The position numbers and the translations under genes are program-made. 64,000 nt of DNA, taken from positions 4,277 through 68,276 of the forward strand of contig CAYVQE010000010.1 of assembly GCA_964454005.1 (NCBI GenBank), in the 5' to 3' direction. Shown piece by piece: positions 14,955 to 25,054 of the stretch; position 1 is the stretch's first letter; the number at the start of each line of letters is the position of its first letter. The DNA comes from an uncultured Myxococcales bacterium. GTDB lineage: Bacteria > Myxococcota > B64-G9. The notes below the pieces were generated by a model that saw nothing but the letters and a program-made list of their open reading frames with translations, had not been told where the DNA came from and ran no database searches.

Positions 14955-16216
<1,262 letters not shown>

Positions 16217-16220
<4 letters not shown>

Positions 16221-17494
16221 GGGTTCTCTCCATCCCCGCCCGTCTTGGCATCGCCAGCCCGGCGCGACAGCTTCAGCGCCCGCCGCTCGAGTTCGGCCTC
16301 GACTGCCTCCAGCTCGACCCCGGCCCGGGCCAGGGCCACCAGGGCGAAGTAGAACACGTCGGCCGCCTCCCAGGCCACCGCCGCCTCACCCTCGGCCGCG
16401 GCCAGCTCGCCGGCCTCCTCCAGCAACTTGGCCCGCAGCAGCTCGGGGTCATCGAGCAGGCGCCGGGTATAGGAGCCGACCGGCGCCCGCTCGGCGCGCG
16501 CCACCAGCCTGCGGGCCAACGCCGGCAGGCCGCGGCCCGGGCCCCAGCAGCTGCGGCTGCCCAGGTGGCAGAAGCCGCCGCCGGCCTGGCGCACCCGAAA
16601 GCGCAGCGCGTCGCGGTCGCAGTCGGCGTCGACCGCCAGCAGCCGCTGGCTGGCCCCCGAGGTCTGGCCCTTGATCCACAGCCCGCGCGAGCGCGAATGG
16701 TAGACGCCCTGGCGCCGCTCCAGGGCCGCGGTCAGGCTCTCCAGGTCCGACCAGGCCAGGCCCAGGGCCTGATCGTGCTCGTCGACCACCACCGTTGCCC
16801 ACAGCCCGTCGGGCCGGTCGGAGCGCAGCGGCGCGGCGAAGGCCGCGGCCAGCGGCAGCCTGCCGGTGTAGATGGCCATGCCCACCTGGGCGTCGGCGCC
16901 CAGCCGATCCAGCTCGGCGATCTCGGCCGCGGTGGTGATGCCGCCGGCCACGGTCACCCGGGCCGCGCCGGCGGCTTCGACCAGCGCGGCCACCTGCTCC
17001 AGCGCAGTGCCGCCCAGCCGACCCTCGCGCTCGACGAAGGTGACCAGAAAGCCGCCCACCAGGCCCTCCAGCTCACGCATGCGCTCGAGCACACCGCGGC
17101 CGGTACCCCGCTGCCAGCCCTCGACCACCACCTCGCCATCGCGGGCGTCCAGCGCCGCGATCACCCGCTCGGGCGGCAGCCCGCGCAGCAGCGCCGGCTC
17201 GGCGGCGGTGCCCAGGATGACGGCGCGGGCGCCGGCATCCAGCCAGCGCCGGGCGCTGTCGCGGTCGCGGATGCCACCGCCGACGCGGCACGGCGCCCGA
17301 GCCAGCAGGTCTTCCATCACGGCCCGGTTGTGGCCGCGGCCCAGCGCCGCGTCCAGGTCGATCACCGCCACCTCGCCCACCAAGCCGAAACCCTCGGCCA
17401 GCGGCCGCGGATCGCCGGCGTCCAGCGCCTTGTCGCACCCGCCCACCAGCTGCACCGCCGAGCCGTCCTGCAGGTCGATCGAGGGCACGATCAT
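16217..17494 (-). CDS. hisA-hisIE: fusion of ProFAR isomerase (HisA-like) with phosphoribosyl-AMP cyclohydrolase / phosphoribosyl-ATP pyrophosphatase (HisI-HisE)
   Basis: N-terminal part [19 protein letters not shown]...VIDLDAALG...VGGGIR...AGGITT (TIM-barrel HisA type). Middle part [16 protein letters not shown]...[13 protein letters not shown]...[10 protein letters not shown] (HisI). C-terminal part [25 protein letters not shown]...[13 protein letters not shown] (HisE). Internal ATG at 17494 overlaps the hisF stop. Confidence 0.9.
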
Positions 17495-18249
17495 CGGCGC
17501 ACCTCCAGCCCGGCCTCGGCCATGGCCGCCTTGAGCGAGCCCACCGTGGTCTCGCGGAAGTGGAAGATCGAGGCCGCCAGCACCGCGTCGGCCCCGGCGC
17601 GCACGGCCGCGACCAGGTGCTCGGGCCGCGAGGCGCCGCCCGAGGCGATCACCGGCACCTCCACCGCGGCCGACACCGCCGCCAGCAGCTCCAGGTCGTA
17701 ACCGCTGCGGGTGCCGTCGCGGTCCCAGCTGGTCAGCAGGATCTCGCCGGCGCCGGCGGCCGCCGCCTCGGCCGCCCAGGCCACCGCGTCGCGGCCGGTG
17801 CGCTCGCGGCCCGACAGGATCACCAGCTCCCAGCCGCCGCCCGGCAGCGCCGCCGCGTCCAGCGCCAGCACGGTGCACTGGCGGCCGAAGCGCTCGGCCA
17901 GCTCGCCCAGCAGCGCCGGCCGGCGCACCGCCGCCGTGTTGACGCCCACCTTGTCGGCGCCGGCCTCGAGCAGGGCGGCCGCGTCGTCCACCGCGCGCAC
18001 CCCGCCGCCCACCGTCAGCGGCACCGACAGCGCGGCGCGCGCCCGGCGCACCGTGTCGCGGGCGGTGGCCCGGCCGTCCGGGGTGGCCGACACGTCGAGC
18101 AGCACGATCTCGTCGGCCCCCTGGGCCTCGTAGGCGGCGGCCAGCTCGGCCGGATCGCCGGCGTCGCGCAAGCCCTGAAAACGCACCCCCTTGACCACCC
18201 GCCCGGCGCGCACGTCCAAGCAGGGGATGATCCGCGCCGCCAGCGTCAT
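17491..18249 (-). CDS. hisF: imidazole glycerol phosphate synthase cyclase subunit
   Basis: [24 protein letters not shown]...LTVGGGVR...KVGVNTAAV...SWDRDGT...VIASGGA. The real start is the internal ATG at 18249; the track ORF is 5'-extended. Confidence 0.95.
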
Positions 18250-18872
18250 GCCTGCGCCTCCTGCTCCCCTTCGCATTCCAGCCAGCGGCGCAGCAGCGCC
18301 TGGCCCCAGTCGCCCGACAGCTCGGGATGGAACTGGCAGGCCAGCACCGCGCCGCGTTCCAATGCGGCCACGAAGAGCCCGCCGTGGTCGGCCCGAGCCA
18401 CCGCCCAGCCGGGCGGCGGCTCGACCAGGCGGTAGGAGTTGGCGAAGTAGGCCCAGCCGGGCTGCAGCAAGCGGCAGCCGGCGTCCGGCGCGACGCGGTT
18501 CCAGCCCATCTGCGGCACCCGCAGCCCGGCGCCGAAACGGGTCACCCGGCCGGGGAGCACGCCCAGCCCGACCCGGCCGGGACTCTCCTCGGAGGCGCTG
18601 CACAGCAGCTGCAGGCCCAAACAGACCGCCAGCGTGGGCCGGCCGACCGCGATGCGCTCGACGAGCACCTCGCCCAGCCCGTCTGCCTCGAGCCGCTCCA
18701 TGGCCGGGGCCAGCGCGCCCACGCCGGGCAGCACCACCCGCCGGGCGGCGGCCACCCGCTCGGCGTCCTCGACCACTGCGGCGGTGGCGCCGGCGCGCTG
18801 CAGCCCGGCCAGCACGCTGGCGGTGTTGGCAGTGCCGGTGCGCACAACCAGCACCGGCTCGGCGGTCATCAC
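18246..18872 (-). CDS. hisH: imidazole glycerol phosphate synthase glutamine amidotransferase subunit
   Basis: LPGVGA, CLGLQLL (nucleophile Cys), QFHPELS. ATGA overlaps at both ends. Confidence 0.95.
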
Positions 18873-19456
18873 AGGCTCCCCTTGGTCGACGGCACCCGGG
18901 CGTCGCCGTCTCGGCCCACGGCCGCGCGCAGCGCCAGGGCCAGGGCCTTGAAGGCCGCCTCGGCCCGGTGGTGATCGTTGGCGCCGCGCAGCAGATCGAC
19001 GTGGAAGCAGCTGCGCCCGGCCAGGGCCAGCGAGCGCAGGAAGTGCTCGGCGTTCTCGGCGGCCAGCCCGCCGACGGCGTCGCGCTGTAGCGCCAGGTCC
19101 ACCTCGGCCCAGGGCCGGCCCGACAGGTCGACCACCGCCCGCGCCAGGGCCTCGTCCAGCGGGGCCAGAGCGTGGCCGAATCGCGCGATGCCGCGGCGCT
19201 CGCCCAGCGCCTCATCCAGCGCCGCGCCCAGCGCCAAGGCGCAGTCTTCGGCGGTGTGGTGCTCGTCGACCTCCAGGTCGCCGCTGCAGCGCAACTCCAG
19301 GTCGAAGCGGGCGTGGCGCACCAGGCTGGTGATCAGGTGATCCAGAAAACCGATGCCGGTGGCCACCTCGGCCCGGCCGCTGCCGTCCAGGCTCAGCTCC
19401 AGCCGGATGTCGGTCTCCTGCGTCCGGCGCGCGATCGCGGCGTTGCGGGTCTCCAT
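18869..19456 (-). CDS. hisB: imidazoleglycerol-phosphate dehydratase (monofunctional, 195 aa)
   Basis: [25 protein letters not shown]...[10 protein letters not shown]...[14 protein letters not shown]...[16 protein letters not shown]. No phosphatase domain. Confidence 0.95.
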
Positions 19457-21177
19457 CACAGCAGCTCCTCCAGCTCGTCCATCGCGCCCAGCACGCGGCC
19501 GGCCCCGGCCGCCAGCAGCGTCTCGTCGACCGCTTCCGGGTCGCCCGGGGCGCGCACGCCCAGCGGCAAAACCCCGGCGGCCCGCGCCGCGCGCAGATCG
19601 TCGGGCGCGTCGCCCAGCATCCAGGCCCGCTCCACCCCCAGCTTGCTGCAGGCCAGCGCCACCGGCTCCGGGTCGGGCTTGGCCGCGGCGTCTTCCATGC
19701 ACACCAGTGCGGCGAACAGCTCGTCCACGCCGGCCCGGCGCAGGAAGCGCTCGGCATCGGCCCGCGGCCGACCGGTGACCACGCCGAGCTGCCAGATACC
19801 GGCCAGCCGGCGCAGCAGCTCCACATCCGGGATCAGCCGCTCGCGCTCGCGCAGCCCGGGCCGGTCGGGCCCGCCCTGGTAATGGGCTTCGAAACAACGG
19901 GTCACCTCGTCGAGCCCGACCTCCACCCCGCGGCGGGCCAGCAGCCGCCGGGTCACCCGCCAGTCGTTGTTGGCGTCCGGCTCGGCCTTGGACGCGGCGA
20001 TGGTGGCCGCGTCCAGCTCGACGCCGAAATCGGCCGCGGTCAGGCGGATGGTCTCGCGATAGGAGGTGGACACGTCGGCCAGCACTCCGTCCATGTCGAA
20101 CAGCAGCGCCTCGGGCGACAGGGCCACCCGCAGCGCGCGCTCCAGCCGCGCGTAGGCGGCCGGTTCGCCCGGGCAGGTGATGCGCACCCGGTCGGCCAGC
20201 CGCTGGCGGCCGGGCCAGGCGCGCACGGCGATGCCCTGGCCGGCCAGGGCCTGGCGCAGCCAGGCCGGATCGCGGTGGCGGGCCAGCACGAAGTTGGCCT
20301 GCGAGGGCAGCGGCGCACAGCCCAGTTCGTCCAGCAGCCCGGCCAGGGCCCAGCGCTCTCGGCGCACCCGCTCGATGAAGCGCTCGACCCGCTCGCGGTC
20401 GCGCTCCAGCCGCAGCCCGGCCAAAGCCAGCGAGGGCCGCGCCACCGCGTAGGGGTTGCCGGCGGCGCGCAGCGCGGACACCGCCTCGGTCGGGCCCACC
20501 GCGTAGCCCACCCGCAGCCCGGCCAGACCCCAGGCCTTGGACAACGAGCGCACCACCACCGCGTTGGGCAGCTCGAGACAGACGGCGGTCAGGTCCTGAT
20601 CGGCGAACTCGGCGTAGGCCAGATCCACCAGCAGCAGCACGTCCGGCCGTTCGGCCGCCAACCGCTGTACCGCCTCGGGTGTGGCCACGGCGCCGGTGGG
20701 GTTGTTGGGGCTGACCACGGTGACCACAGCCGTGGCCGGGCCGCAGGCGGCCAGCACGGCTTCGACCGGAAAGGGCCCCGAGGGCCAGTCCACCTCGACC
20801 ACCAGACCGCCGGCCAGGCGCACGTAGCGCGGGAACATCTCGAACGAGGGCACCGGCATGACCAGCTCACGGCCCGGCTCCAGGTAGGCGCGGCAGATGC
20901 GGTCGATGGCGTCGTCGCCGCCGGCGGTGACCAGCACCCGCTCGGGCGCCACGCCGAGCTGGGCGGCCAGCTCGGCCTCGAAGGCCCAGGGGTCGGGGTA
21001 GCGCCGCAGCGACTCGGGGCCCAGTCGGGCCAGCTCGTCGAGCAGCTCGGGGCCGGGCGCGGCGCCCTCGTTGCCGTCCAGCCGCAGATCCACCGGGGTG
21101 GGCGGCGGCGGGGCGCGGTAGGCGCTGGCGCCGATCATGCGGTCGATGGGCTGCGGACTGCGGCGCGATTCGGACAT
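19456..21177 (-). CDS. hisC: histidinol-phosphate aminotransferase fused to a C-terminal HAD-superfamily phosphatase domain
   Basis: Class II aminotransferase motifs (YPDP, SPNNPTG, RSLSKAWGLAGLRVGY). From about residue 365, HAD motifs LLFDMDGVLADV, VVTGRPR, AKPDPEP, GDAPDD. Confidence 0.9.
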   Translation of the reverse strand: MSESRRSPQPIDRMIGASAYRAPPPPTPVDLRLDGNEGAAPGPELLDELARLGPESLRRYPDPWAFEAELAAQLGVAPERVLVTAGGDDAIDRICRAYLEPGRELVMPVPSFEMFPRYVRLAGGLVVEVDWPSGPFPVEAVLAACGPATAVVTVVSPNNPTGAVATPEAVQRLAAERPDVLLLVDLAYAEFADQDLTAVCLELPNAVVVRSLSKAWGLAGLRVGYAVGPTEAVSALRAAGNPYAVARPSLALAGLRLERDRERVERFIERVRRERWALAGLLDELGCAPLPSQANFVLARHRDPAWLRQALAGQGIAVRAWPGRQRLADRVRITCPGEPAAYARLERALRVALSPEALLFDMDGVLADVSTSYRETIRLTAADFGVELDAATIAASKAEPDANNDWRVTRRLLARRGVEVGLDEVTRCFEAHYQGGPDRPGLRERERLIPDVELLRRLAGIWQLGVVTGRPRADAERFLRRAGVDELFAALVCMEDAAAKPDPEPVALACSKLGVERAWMLGDAPDDLRAARAAGVLPLGVRAPGDPEAVDETLLAAGAGRVLGAMDELEELL

Positions 21178-21189
21178 GCTCCCCTCCCC

Positions 21190-22068
21190 TCAGGGCACCA
21201 GCTGGGCCAGCCGGGTGACCACCACGTCGCTGCCGCCACGGGCCTTGATCTCGGGGATGATGCGCGGCAGCTCGGCCCGCGGCACCGCGGCCTTGACCGC
21301 GAAGCCGGCCTCGCCGTGCAAGGTGGAGATGGTGGGCTCGCGCATGCAGGGCAGCGCGGCGACCACCGCCTCCAGCCGCTCCGGCGGCACGTTGACCTCG
21401 ACCATCACCCGCCGCCGCGCCTCGAGCACCGAGCCGAGCAGCAAACACAGTCGCTCCAGCGCCTCGCGCACCCGGGGCCGCTCGAGCGCCCGCGGGTTGG
21501 CGTAGAGCCGGGTCGACGAACGCATCAGCTCGTCGACAATCTGCAGACCGTTGGCGCGCAGGGTCGAGCCGGTGGCGGTGTTGTCGACGATGCAGTCGGC
21601 GTCGTCGGGTGGGAAGACCTCGGTGGCGCCGTAGGACAGCGCCAGCCTGGCATCGAGCCCGGTGCGCTCGATCCAGCCCGCGGTCAGCTGCTCATACTCC
21701 GAGGCCACCACCAGCGGCCGGGCCGGCAGGCGGCCTCCGACCAGCAGCCCGTGCGGCGCGGCGGCGACCAGCCGCACCGGATCCAGCCCGGTGTCGAGCA
21801 GCTCGACCAGGTCGGCGCCCCGCTCGGCCACCCAGTCGGCGCCGGCGAAGCCGGCGTCGCGCGAGCCGATGTGCAGCATCTGCACGATGTTCTGCGGCTT
21901 GAGCACCTTGACCGCGTAGCCCGGCAGCGAGATGCCCGGCCGGTAGTCGCGCTCGCCCAGGGCCACCTCGATGCCGGCGTCGGCCAGCAGGCCCAGCACG
22001 CCGCGCTGCATGCGTCCCTTGGGCAGGGCCAGCCGGATGGTCTCCTGTCCGCTGTCCTCTGTCGCCAT
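21190..22068 (-). CDS. hisG: ATP phosphoribosyltransferase, long form with C-terminal regulatory domain
   Basis: RLALPKGRM...VKVLKPQNIVQML..GSRDAGFAGADWV...DCIVDNTATGSTLRANGL. It occupies the last 292 codons of the spurious 1274-aa track ORF. ATG at 22068 is preceded by GGAGGTGAGGGG. Confidence 0.95.
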   Translation of the reverse strand: MATEDSGQETIRLALPKGRMQRGVLGLLADAGIEVALGERDYRPGISLPGYAVKVLKPQNIVQMLHIGSRDAGFAGADWVAERGADLVELLDTGLDPVRLVAAAPHGLLVGGRLPARPLVVASEYEQLTAGWIERTGLDARLALSYGATEVFPPDDADCIVDNTATGSTLRANGLQIVDELMRSSTRLYANPRALERPRVREALERLCLLLGSVLEARRRVMVEVNVPPERLEAVVAALPCMREPTISTLHGEAGFAVKAAVPRAELPRIIPEIKARGGSDVVVTRLAQLVP

Positions 22069-22126
22069 TCCCCTCACCTCCCGAACCCGACCCACTCCCC
22101 GAACCGCGTATTCCGCTCGCAGCGGC

Positions 22127-22246
22127 CGAAACGCAACGACGCCGGCTCTAGGGCCGGCGTCGATGGAGTTCGCGGCACGCGAACCACCACCGTCAACCGG
22201 CCCCGCCGGGATGATGATGCCGCTGCTGCAGCGCACCGCCCAACAT
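22127..22246 (-). promoter_or_regulatory. candidate his leader: 17-codon ORF MLGGALQQRHHHPGGAG followed by two hairpins, the second terminator-like
   Basis: Minus strand: ATG 22246, CAT CAT CAT at 22219..22211, TGA at 22195..22193. Hairpin gttcgcg-tgc-cgcgaac (22168..22184). A 10-bp GC stem (22137..22146 / 22153..22162) is followed by UUGCGUUUC. hisG ATG is 55 nt further on. Confidence 0.4.
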
Positions 22247-22398
22247 GCGCCAATCGTGATCCAATTCCACCGACCTGTCAAGCTTGTGCATCCCGGCCGG
22301 GCCGATGCAGCCGAAATGTTCCGAGAACGTGGGAACCCGGGGCGCTTCGTGGTACCCTGACGCTGGTTTGATTCAGCCTGTAAAAGGAGGCTTGGCCC

Positions 22399-22824
22399 TT
22401 GTTCGGTTCGAATCGGGTTGGTGCTTTGCTGGCAACGGTTCTGGTCGGGTTGGCGGCCCTGGGACTCATGGCGGGCTGCGAGGACGACGAGGAGCTGGCG
22501 CCGAGCCAGGAGCTGCTCGAACGGCTGTTCGATGCGGGCTTTTCGATCGAGCGCGATCAGGTGCGGGCGCGGCCGGTCAATCAGATGCTGGACTACGTCA
22601 CCTCGGAGTGCTACCGCGCCTACCATCATCCGACCGAGATGTTTTTCTGCTTCCACCACTTCAAGACCGGCATCAAGGCCCGCGAGGCCCGGGTGGCGCT
22701 CGACCGGCGCAAGTGGCCCCAGGGGCGCTACTGGGCCACCGAAGTCAGCGGCCGCAGCCTGGTGCTGGTCGACGCCCAGATCAAAGACCGGCCGGTGGCC
22801 AACAAGCTGATCGGTTTCTTCTGA
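22399..22824 (+). CDS. hypothetical lipoprotein
   Basis: AAGGAGG lies 8 nt before the TTG start. MFGSNRVGALLATVLVGLAALGLMAGC lipobox. Confidence 0.7.
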   Translation: MFGSNRVGALLATVLVGLAALGLMAGCEDDEELAPSQELLERLFDAGFSIERDQVRARPVNQMLDYVTSECYRAYHHPTEMFFCFHHFKTGIKAREARVALDRRKWPQGRYWATEVSGRSLVLVDAQIKDRPVANKLIGFF

Positions 22825-22862: not shown

Positions 22863-24944
22863 TCAGGGACAGCCGCCCACCTCGCGCCAGGCCAGCACCT
22901 GGCCCTGGCCCTCGGTGATGAAACCGTAGAAGCGCGCCAGCCAGTATGGCTCGCTCAGGTCGCGGCCCGGCGACTGCACCTGGCCGTCGACCGGCCGCGG
23001 ATCGCCGATGCGGAATGGGCTGCGCTGCCACATGTAGTCGGCGTAGCGCCGCAGCGAGGCGGGCAGGCCCTCGCTGGCCAGTCCTTCGGCACACTGGCCG
23101 TCGTCGAATGGGCACTCGGCCGCCCGGCCATCGCACTCGTAAGAGATGTCGCGGTGCTCGAGCGGGATGCCGAACAGGGTGACCGGCTCCTCGCAGGTCT
23201 GGCGCTCGTCGGCCGTGGGGCAGCGCACCTCGGTGCCGGCCGGCAGCTGATCCAGAATCTCCTGGCGCGACACGTCGTGGGTGCGCCGCGGCGCGTTCTG
23301 CACCCCGTCGTTGCCGCCGAAGTCGTGCAGCTGGGCAACCAGCTCGTCGATCGCCCGCTGGCGCTCGCTGGCCACCGCGGCCGGCACCACCCCGGCGTAC
23401 ATGGCATTGTACTTGGCGCTCTTGTGGTTGTAGAGCGCCTTGTCCCAGATCTCCTCCTCCATCACCGCCACCATGCGCTCGCGCAGCTCGCCGGCCGGCA
23501 GCATGGTGACGAACTGCCAGTGGGTGCCGAAGGTGATGTGATCGCCGTAGTACTTGAAGCAGTAGTCGGGCTGGCGGAAGGCCATCATGGTGTCGGCCAC
23601 CGCGGGCGCGTCCAACTCGCCGATCAGCTCGTCGAACAGGAAGCTGCGGTACTGCTCCTCGCCGGTCAGGTAGTAGGCCATGGTGGCCAGGTGCATCAGG
23701 TGCGAAGCGTCGCCGCCGCGCAGCGAGACGATGTAGAAGTGATCGATCTGGCCGGGCACCGGCTGCTCGGGCTCGGACAGGTCGGCGGCCAGATCCAGCA
23801 TGTCGGTCATGAACGCATCGGACGCGGCGTCGATCACCCGGTAGGGCTCGAGCTGCACCCGCTCGGGGCAGGAGCGGTCGAAGCCGTCCCGGTTGGCCGG
23901 GTTGATGCCCAGGTGGACGTACCACACCAGCCGGTCGATCTGCATCAGGTCGGGGTCGCCCGGGTCGAGCTGTATGTCGGCGCCGGCGAAGTAGTCGGAG
24001 ATCTCGGCCAGCACCTCGGGGTTGTCCTGCAGGTTGATAATCTCCATGCGCCGCAGCCGCTTGAGGTAGCAGGTCAGCGCCTCGACGATGGCGGCCTTGA
24101 GCTGGGCGTCGGCGAGCAGGTTGTAGACGATGGGAAAGGCCATCATGGGCCCGGTGTACTGGTCGATCGAAGGATGGCCGTTCCACATGGGAGTGCCCTG
24201 GACCAACTGGCCCTGTTCGTCGGGCAGGCCCGCGGTGTAGGCCTCGGGCAGGCCGGCGACCAGGTCGGCTTGGGCGATGGGCAGATCGCGGGTGGCGCCC
24301 GGCTCGCCCCAGCGGACGATGAGCTGATCCGAGTTGGGGCCGCGCTCCGGGTAGCGCAAGTAGTGGTAGCGCGCCAGGTAGCCCGGGATGCCGGTCACCT
24401 GGAAGTTGCGCAGCAGGGCTCGGGTCTTGGCCTCCATGCGCTGGTAGTCGGCCCGGGTGCCGGTGGCCACGTAGCGGAAGGCATCGGCCACCAGGGCGGC
24501 GCCGGTCCAGATGGCCGCGTCGCCGCAGCCGGCCCAGCGGTCGAAGTTGTCCGCATCGCCCCATTCGGCCTCTGGAGTATCGCCCGGCATGGGGCCGGTG
24601 AAGACCCGCTCGGCGGTCAGCCCGGCCGGCGAGCTGTGCAGATCGTACCAGCGGTCGTAGAGGTAGACCCGCTCGAGCAGCGGATCCGGCTGGTCGACGA
24701 AGTCGCCGGTGGCCGTATCGTAGATGGCGCAGCGTTCCAGCCGGCCGGCGACGCAGCGTTGCTGTTGGTAGATGGGACAGGACACCACCTCGCTGCCAGC
24801 CAGCGGATCGGTCGGCGGCTCGGCCACGGTGGGCTGTGGCGCGAAGGCCGGCGGACCTCCGTCCCCACCCCCTCCATCTCCACCGCCGTCGCAGCCCAGC
24901 GGCAGCAGGGCTGCCGCAGCACAGAGAATCAATGACCGGCTCAT
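22863..24944 (-). CDS. large hypothetical lipoprotein
   Basis: ATG 24944 preceded by GGGAGG. MSRSLILCAAAALLPLGC lipobox followed by a Gly/Asp linker. No catalytic motif recognised. Confidence 0.75.
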   Translation of the reverse strand: MSRSLILCAAAALLPLGCDGGGDGGGGDGGPPAFAPQPTVAEPPTDPLAGSEVVSCPIYQQQRCVAGRLERCAIYDTATGDFVDQPDPLLERVYLYDRWYDLHSSPAGLTAERVFTGPMPGDTPEAEWGDADNFDRWAGCGDAAIWTGAALVADAFRYVATGTRADYQRMEAKTRALLRNFQVTGIPGYLARYHYLRYPERGPNSDQLIVRWGEPGATRDLPIAQADLVAGLPEAYTAGLPDEQGQLVQGTPMWNGHPSIDQYTGPMMAFPIVYNLLADAQLKAAIVEALTCYLKRLRRMEIINLQDNPEVLAEISDYFAGADIQLDPGDPDLMQIDRLVWYVHLGINPANRDGFDRSCPERVQLEPYRVIDAASDAFMTDMLDLAADLSEPEQPVPGQIDHFYIVSLRGGDASHLMHLATMAYYLTGEEQYRSFLFDELIGELDAPAVADTMMAFRQPDYCFKYYGDHITFGTHWQFVTMLPAGELRERMVAVMEEEIWDKALYNHKSAKYNAMYAGVVPAAVASERQRAIDELVAQLHDFGGNDGVQNAPRRTHDVSRQEILDQLPAGTEVRCPTADERQTCEEPVTLFGIPLEHRDISYECDGRAAECPFDDGQCAEGLASEGLPASLRRYADYMWQRSPFRIGDPRPVDGQVQSPGRDLSEPYWLARFYGFITEGQGQVLAWREVGGCP

Positions 24945-25054
24945 GCTGCCTCCCATGAACTATGCGCAGATAAAGAGATTCTTCCACGCCCCGCCGCCCG
25001 GCTGCAAGCCGCACTGAGACTGGATCGGAGAGCGAAAAAAAACAAATTTCGGGA

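Follow-up and report, generated by a model that had tools for sequence, protein, structure and literature searches.

A probable leaderless histidine attenuator, conserved with the his operon, ahead of hisG in a Myxococcota genome

The 64,000-nucleotide (nt) stretch of DNA analyzed here, referred to as the window, comes from an uncultured Myxococcales bacterium (contig CAYVQE010000010.1, positions 4,277 to 68,276) and carries on its minus strand a complete seven-gene histidine biosynthesis operon (14955..22068), which by Pfam consists of hisG, a hisC-HAD fusion, hisB, hisH, hisF, a hisA-hisIE fusion and hisD. The first of these genes, a long-form hisG (22068..21190, minus strand, Pfam HisG + HisG_C), is separated by an intergenic gap of 330 base pairs (bp) from a divergent lipoprotein-like gene. 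Within this gap lies a putative histidine attenuator, first proposed in an earlier note made from the letters alone, and we ask here how its leader peptide, hairpins and promoter are built, how far they are conserved and how they might act together. All coordinates are those of the window, and leader features are given on the minus strand.

The leader open reading frame (ORF), MLGGALQQRHHHPGGAG followed by TGA, occupies 22193..22246, with its ATG at 22246 and its TGA at 22195-22193, and reads ATG TTG GGC GGT GCG CTG CAG CAG CGG CAT CAT CAT CCC GGC GGG GCC GGT TGA. It is the 17-codon leader with three consecutive His codons that the earlier note had placed ahead of hisG, present with every feature listed for it. 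Codons 10-12, CAU CAU CAU in the RNA (22211..22219), are the putative regulatory codons. Codons 15-17 supply the sequence GGGCCGG (22197..22203), which can pair with CCGGCCC at 22151-22157 as the two strands of an antiterminator, and a second antiterminator segment, GACGG (22190..22194; family consensus GAUGG), overlaps the stop codon and can pair with CCAUC at 22162-22166, with one C-A mismatch in the window. Also at the place given for it is a central 7-bp hairpin, GUUCGCG-UGC-CGCGAAC (22168..22184), which can form in both states and would sit at the top of the antiterminator stem; relatives carry a hairpin of variable sequence at the equivalent position. Beyond it comes the putative intrinsic terminator (22127..22162), composed of a 10-bp GC stem with a 6-nt loop, CGACGCCGGC-cctaga-GCCGGCGTCG at 22162-22137 (3′ arm as RNA GCCGGCGUCG), and a U-rich tail, TTGCGTTTCG (as RNA UUGCGUUUCG), at 22136-22127. 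A terminator scan of the region returned two terminator-like sites relative to 0.4 expected from shuffles, one of them being this 10-bp stem. The complementarity claimed between the leader end and CCGGCCC is real, with the qualification that CCGGCCC comprises the last five bases of the terminator 5′ arm plus the first two bases of the loop (22151..22157), and the distance from the end of the tail to the hisG ATG, given as 55 nt, is in fact 58-59 nt.

Upstream of the leader, a −35 box, TTGACA (22276..22281), is followed after 17 nt by a −10-like box, CACGAT (22253..22258), which ends 6 nt ahead of the A of the ATG, giving the arrangement TTGACA-17 nt-CACGAT-6 nt-ATG. This geometry recurs among the relatives described below: a TTGAC-type hexamer ends 29-32 nt ahead of the leader ATG in 36 of 41 family members, where chance would account for about 0.5% per locus, and roughly 30 of these 36 relatives have a NANNNT hexamer at 16-18-nt spacing, 6-9 nt ahead of the ATG. 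None of the leaders has a Shine-Dalgarno sequence; hisG has a strong one (GGGAGGTGA / GGGAGGUGA, 22074..22082), which shows that ordinary genes here do use them. From the promoter geometry, transcription probably starts at A22246 or at most 3 nt upstream, so that the mRNA would be leaderless. The lack of a clear Shine-Dalgarno sequence before the ATG, which had been noted as a weak point, is thus confirmed, and it would be explained by a transcript that begins with its start codon. A longer in-frame ORF can be read in the window from an ATG at 22291, and a stop interrupts this frame in the same-genus genome.

We assessed conservation around the hisG genes of 40 relatives and of 80 public genomes that belong to this HisG clade. 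The same-genus genome encodes the leader peptide MLGGALQQWHHHHPGEAG, same-family genomes encode MNSCVHHHHHHHQTRGVG, MRCESTRLHHHYHATGWAG and MNCCVQNKLHHHRHHHHHGPGWVG, and many more loci have equivalent ORFs 100-215 nt upstream of hisG. These mini-ORFs carry three to nine His codons, precede long-form hisG and share the promoter spacing, the antiterminator and the terminator. A crude scan detected a His mini-ORF in 43 of 92 loci, and a covariance model of the family, R1, matched about 40 of 88 distinct loci of the HisG clade on the strand proximal to hisG. Thus the check that the earlier note had called for, conservation of mini-ORF, His run and hairpins ahead of hisG, came out positive in the genus, in the family and across these clade loci. 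When upstream regions were searched for an ATG-initiated ORF with at least four His in eight codons, 35 of 85 contained one on the forward strand and 1 of 85 on the reverse complement; the same test with any other amino acid was positive in at most 10 of 85, leaving His as the only enriched residue.

We counted pairing on an alignment of 24 members (A2) and found both of the competing helices to be kept. In the terminator stem, 91.5% of cells were paired, compared with 20-54% in slid controls, and compensatory changes were present at 6 of the 12 pairs, with an invariant CGCCGG core. The antiterminator (GGGCCGG/CCGGCCC plus GAUGG/CCAUC) was paired in 85.6% of cells, compared with 25-51% in slid controls; across these 24 relatives the GGGCCGG/CCGGCCC helix alone reached 91.5% and helices 2 and 3, formed by the GAUGG/CCAUC segment, 73-80%. 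Compensatory changes affected five antiterminator pairs, each in single sequences. At locus L062 all three strands changed in concert, to GGUCGG / CCGACC / GGUCGG, and L097 has the change AGCCGG / CCGGCU. The antiterminator suggested in the earlier note, between the leader end and the terminator 5′ arm, is therefore kept in relatives with some compensatory changes, and it behaves as expected under a simulated ribosome footprint, as described below.

The 3′ part of the leader ORF appears to be constrained as RNA. The stop-codon motif UGAUGGUGUAG is conserved at the RNA level and is read in two different frames among relatives: in most members the ORF stops at the UGA of UGAUGGUGUAG and the peptide ends in ...AG or ...VG, while in others (L075, L077, L083 and L129, as opposed to the L028/L069 type) the stop is a UAG 8 nt downstream and the peptides end in ...RLMV or ...RRMV. 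The constraint is therefore on the RNA and not on the peptide, and the comparison of sequences indicates that the His ORF has shifted frame during evolution against a fixed RNA scaffold. From the stop codon to the terminator, the primary sequence (UGAUGGUG...CCAUCGACGCCGG) is conserved beyond the needs of pairing alone, with a region between the conserved ends that varies in length and sequence.

We next simulated the effect of a ribosome by removing the nucleotides it would cover, up to 10 to 14 nt beyond the first base of the A site, and folding the remainder. In the co-transcriptional version, folding takes place before the terminator 3′ arm exists and is scored as pairing of the 5′ arm with the leader end. 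Under these conditions, a ribosome stalled at the first His codon allowed antiterminator pairing in 32 of 34 loci and one stalled at the last His codon in 28 of 34; a ribosome at the stop codon allowed it in 0 of 34, a consequence of how the mask is constructed. For the window, the antiterminator probability was 1.0 as long as the A site had not passed codon 11 (the second His), falling to 0.7 at codon 11 when the footprint was set to +14 nt. For an A site on the third His the probability ranged from 0.14 to 0.85 depending on the footprint, and from codon 13-14 on it was approximately 0, with a terminator probability of 0.9-0.98. The three His codons are thus the last positions in the model at which a stalled ribosome still allows antitermination, and the predicted switch point coincides exactly with the His run. 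When the complete leader was folded at equilibrium, the terminator was favored in most relatives wherever the ribosome was placed, so that only the co-transcriptional version discriminates between states.

The choice of His codon in the leaders is also distinctive. Genome-wide, CAU makes up 14% of His codons (high-GC3 ORFs, that is, those rich in G and C at third codon positions), yet it accounts for 3 of 3 in the window leader versus 0 of 3 in the window hisG. Across 41 family leaders the share of CAU was 125 of 220 (57%), compared with 16 of 131 (12%) in the adjacent hisG genes (P = 1 × 10−17) and with 28% T among the other Y-ending leader codons (P = 1 × 10−11). With only one tRNA-His(GUG) gene in the genome, CAU is read by wobble. 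Given what is generally known of wobble decoding, it is a reasonable reading that the sensor prefers the slower codon. The suspicion that the HHH run merely reflects a simple atgatgatg repeat does not hold up against this rare codon being enriched in leaders across the family.

Within its own genome, this configuration with His is unique. Scanning the 6.6-Mb assembly for TTGAC-N28-32-ATG followed by a residue run in an ORF no longer than 40 codons and by a terminator-like hairpin yielded four sites, of which only this one is a His site, and the family covariance models found exactly one real copy, with scores of 75.7 and 69.3 bits. Weaker model matches in the same genome (E 0.1-0.9) were rejected, as all lie inside coding DNA.

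We consider it likely, with a probability of roughly 0.85, that the element is a ribosome-mediated (leader-peptide) transcription attenuator which ties expression of the entire his operon to the availability of charged tRNA-His. Transcription would start at the A of the leader AUG, and a 70S ribosome would load on the 5′ end as polymerase releases it. When histidine is plentiful, the ribosome would pass CAU-CAU-CAU to the UGA and cover both GGGCCGG and the GACGG segment; the terminator stem (22162-22137) would then be the sole pairing open to CCGGCCC, and transcription would end ahead of hisG. When His-tRNA is scarce, the ribosome would stall while its A site holds the first or the second His codon and leave GGGCCGG free to pair with the terminator 5′ arm before the 3′ arm is made; this would produce an extended antiterminator stem with the central hairpin at its top, and polymerase would continue into hisG-hisD. 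In this scheme, we infer the transcription start, the occurrence of termination and the response to histidine from sequence. As regards the parts that define an attenuator, the locus has a short ORF with a cluster of cognate codons upstream of the operon, an intrinsic terminator that separates this ORF from hisG (with an imperfect U-tract in the window) and an antiterminator exclusive of that terminator, with a 5′ strand that a ribosome covers when at the stop codon and leaves free when stalled at the regulatory codons, as indicated by the pairing counts and the footprint simulations.

Several observations weigh against this reading. The remaining doubt includes the weak U-tract of the window copy, which is interrupted (UUGCGUUUC) and because of which intrinsic termination in the window may be inefficient or may need helper factors. 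Covariation support for the antiterminator is thin because both helices hardly vary in their core. The terminator core is in addition found in ordinary terminators: gene-end terminators at L117, L122, L132, L134, L135 and L136 (Planctomycetota and the window's phylum) have the form (A)ACGCCGGC-loop-GCCGGCGU(U) followed by U-tracts, and ACGCCGGC...GCCGGCGU looks like a generally favored terminator sequence in these high-GC lineages, so the core alone is no proof of common descent. A classical upstream "1:2" hairpin can form in the window (CCGGC-GGG-GCCGG, −8 kcal/mol); across 34 relatives such a hairpin is unsupported, its mean energy of −6.8 being matched by −6.7 in shuffles. Even so, an untranslated leader is predicted to keep the antiterminator strand occupied in 19 of 34 loci. 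The folding energy of the region is likewise not unusual relative to shuffles (z = −0.5), and the structural case therefore rests on conservation and not on free energy. There are only three His codons in the window leader, and under the assumed footprints just the first two stalls clearly favor antitermination. Lastly, at equilibrium the untranslated window leader favors the antiterminator, with a terminator probability of 0.01, and by this model it should read through, unlike the E. coli trp leader.

The interrupted U-tract bears most directly on the rival explanation that survives best, in which the mini-ORF does sense His-tRNA and the output is Rho-dependent termination (polarity), mRNA stability or downstream translation, the GC hairpin being a pause or stability element. 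There is precedent for such an output in mycobacterial leaderless polycysteine short ORFs, which act on translation and not on termination (bioRxiv 10.1101/834739). However, several relatives carry the same stem followed by clean U7-U9 tails, and many of the loci compared do so; the hisG Shine-Dalgarno sequence lies clear of the hairpin, with hisG starting 58-59 nt beyond the tail; and the alternative pairing aims exactly at the terminator 5′ arm. We therefore regard a non-intrinsic output as improbable, though it is the alternative to be taken most seriously.

Leader peptides can have functions in trans, as has been proposed for the S. meliloti trpL peptide (PMC7298713), and the ORF could accordingly encode a functional small His-rich peptide, metal-binding or trans-acting, with regulation of hisG being secondary. 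However, the peptide sequence is unconserved outside the His run, its 3′ motif is read in two frames, its His codons are biased to a slow, rare codon and the element is tied strictly to hisG-hisC operons, all of which makes this explanation very unlikely. Even less probable is a riboswitch-type leader that binds a ligand, a tRNA or a protein (T-box-like or a histidine-binding RNA) and in which the ORF is incidental: the conservation from stop codon to terminator in excess of pairing needs would suit such an RNA, but the window has no T-box or other Rfam match at E up to 10, the center between the conserved ends is variable in length and sequence, and the His codons are the one feature common to all members. 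Finally, a chance ORF in GC-rich intergenic DNA beside an unrelated hairpin, that is, a plus-strand atgatgatg repeat next to a generic terminator-like palindrome, would account for the unremarkable folding z-score, for there being no more than three His codons and for the recurrence of the GCCGGC palindrome core in ordinary terminators, but it is already contradicted by the conservation, within the genus, the family and several phyla, of the His runs, the promoter spacing and the two helices, by the negative reverse-complement and other-residue controls and by the site being the sole such His configuration in the 6.6-Mb genome, and we give it hardly any weight.

Transcription attenuation by a leader peptide, the reading we prefer, follows a familiar logic. 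In the enterobacterial hisL leader, a ribosome stalled at the His codons leads to read-through and one at the stop codon to termination (PMC9413887). The comparison drawn in the earlier note, the enterobacterial his-leader logic in a very different lineage, is supported as to the logic. Both leaders have a short ORF with a His run ahead of hisG followed by mutually exclusive antiterminator and terminator hairpins, and the lineages concerned here (Myxococcota, Phycisphaerae, Acidobacteriota and others) are far from the enterobacteria. The two differ in most other respects. The hisL leader (RF00514) has seven His codons as opposed to three in the window and three to nine in its relatives; the window leader has no sequence or structure match to RF00514, has no Shine-Dalgarno sequence and is probably leaderless; and its design is simpler, with the leader end, the terminator 5′ arm and the 3′ arm arranged around one central hairpin and no supported "1:2" hairpin.

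Closer parallels to the proposed start exist in other systems. The leader ORFs of S. meliloti trpL (PMC7298713) and C. glutamicum ilvBNC (PMC11857589) begin at the transcript 5′ end and, as proposed here, combine a leaderless start with attenuation by a terminator and an antiterminator. They serve Trp and Ile/Leu/Val in Alphaproteobacteria and Actinomycetota, respectively, whereas the window leader would serve His, and their start sites were mapped experimentally, whereas that of the window is deduced from promoter geometry alone. The mycobacterial polycysteine short ORFs, which sense amino-acid supply by ribosome stalling (Canestrari et al., bioRxiv 10.1101/834739), are similarly leaderless and contain a run of cognate codons; their output is an unmasked downstream ribosome-binding site, that is, translation, whereas in the window the output would be an intrinsic terminator, with the hisG Shine-Dalgarno sequence uninvolved. 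Comparative genomics has predicted His-leader attenuators in Firmicutes, namely in the Bacillus cereus group, Peptostreptococcaceae and Erysipelotrichales (PMC9413887; PMC2965389). Like the window leader, these candidates have three to five consecutive His, terminator and antiterminator hairpins and no RF00514 match; they constitute independent sequence families in low-GC Gram-positives, lie upstream of hisZ or in other his layouts and have no reported leaderless start.

Searches of Rfam 15 with the window region (E up to 10) and with 20 related loci (E up to 0.1) matched no family, including RF00514 His_leader and the T-box model; the nearest hit was a sub-threshold Thr_leader in one related locus, L006 (31.6 bits relative to a gathering score of 55). 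In the full-text literature we found no His attenuator for Myxococcota, Planctomycetota or Acidobacteriota, a search that did not extend to subscription journals and hence does not prove absence. The sequence family is new to Rfam and to the literature searched; the principle of attenuation itself is textbook knowledge, which the family extends and does not change. What it offers is a concrete, testable mechanism for controlling the biosynthesis of histidine in Myxococcota, Phycisphaerae and Acidobacteriota, groups in which, to our knowledge, almost no cis-regulatory RNAs have been characterized. If the mechanism is true, leaderless translation and tight coupling of transcription and translation both operate in these lineages. 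Adding the family to RNA family databases would put right how hundreds of regions upstream of hisG are annotated, and the preference for rare CAU suggests that an amino-acid sensor's sensitivity is set by which codon it uses.

We then considered how widely the element is distributed. By their NCBI titles, the matching loci belong to Myxococcota/"Deltaproteobacteria", Phycisphaerae/Planctomycetota, Acidobacteriota, Bdellovibrionota, Eisenbacteria and two gammaproteobacterial lineages, names that are approximate because titles of metagenome-assembled genomes (MAGs) are not always reliable. L062/L113 (G121 = G304), for example, is titled as an "uncultured Bdellovibrionales" MAG and falls by genome-based placement in the window's own phylum, and L021 and L053 are among the loci with conflicts between title and placement, which comprise a 73%-GC locus titled "uncultured Enterobacteriaceae" and a "Nitriliruptorales" HisG inside an alphaproteobacterial clade. 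Of 301 genomes sampled from the phylum to which the window belongs, 12 carried the element. In Planctomycetota, 14 of 251 genomes had a model match, of which the 5 scoring at least 50 bits are leaders and those below 50 bits are a mix of further His leaders and ordinary terminators. Leaders were counted only at 50 bits or more, and matches below about 45 bits should not count as leaders; the 35-41-bit matches in other genomes were rejected, being mostly ordinary gene-end terminators that share the ACGCCGGC core. Given this scarcity in the phylum samples, the distribution is patchy.

Where it is present, the element keeps close company with one type of operon. Each of the strong covariance-model matches examined precedes a long-form HisG, and a hisC homologue adjoins hisG in 39 of 39 leader-bearing loci compared with 27 of 51 loci without the element (P = 7 × 10−8). 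A Geminicoccaceae-type alphaproteobacterial clade of this HisG has neither the leader nor an adjacent hisC. The HisG tree is star-like with phyla interleaved, and the leader requires 18 gains or losses on it compared with 28 for shuffled labels; the leader is thus clustered on the tree, whose star-like shape does not allow a choice between vertical descent and horizontal transfer.

These patterns lead us to a broader proposal, which we hold tentatively and at somewhat less than even odds. All these leaders might form one cis-regulatory RNA family of leaderless His attenuators, associated with hisG-hisC-type operons in at least five or six phyla through either ancient descent or horizontal spread with the operon. 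Loading at the 5′-terminal AUG would be part of the mechanism, synchronizing the first ribosome with polymerase without a pause hairpin, the sensor would be tuned by rare, wobble-read CAU, and the 3′ scaffold would be a module that can be re-armed with other codons. A supporting case for this last idea is a Lys-rich leader, built on an almost identical scaffold, ahead of a LysX/LysY/LysZ cluster in one Phycisphaerae genome.

This second copy of the scaffold lies at L125:254-385 (G306:C4:174853-174984), in the "Phycisphaerae bacterium" MAG that also contains locus L030, and scores 53.7 bits with R1 and 66.1 bits with R2. It keeps the leaderless promoter spacing and the ORF end GCCGGCUGA, and its terminator differs from that of the same genome's His leader only by a one-base deletion and one substitution in the loop. 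The peptide, MMSRLTTKKPQKNAKRKQSAAG, has five Lys in ten codons and no His, and downstream are LysX (RimK / LysX_preATP_grasp), a LysY-like semialdehyde dehydrogenase and an amino-acid kinase. We regard it as a candidate lysine (or arginine) attenuator built from a re-armed module. A DNA search for this Lys-rich paralogue in 150 genomes of its class returned terminator fragments only. In Thermus thermophilus, the lysine cluster has a known Lys leader peptide.

A mini-ORF with leaderless geometry also occurs in the window's phylum at L121 (G140:C37:2206-2311, minus strand). This ORF, MNRLIHVTTKVTVTTTTVCVAVVDMS, is Thr- and Val-rich and is followed by a terminator, CAACGCCGGCC...GCCGGCGUU-U9, directly ahead of a BrnQ-type branched-chain amino acid transporter (Pfam Branch_AA_trans), making it a candidate attenuator on the transporter gene.

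Around the leader in the window, the divergent neighbor (22399-22824, plus strand) encodes 141 amino acids (aa) with a lipoprotein-type signal (…GLMAGC) and has no Pfam family. Beyond it, an ORF of 697 aa on the minus strand (22863-24956) has no Pfam match and may be spurious given the GC content of the DNA. Within the operon, one 425-aa protein (16217-17494, minus strand) combines His_biosynth (HisA-like), PRA-CH and PRA-PH domains. The hisC fusion (19456-21177, minus strand) is a HisC-like aminotransferase with a C-terminal HAD hydrolase domain, which is possibly the missing histidinol-phosphate phosphatase.

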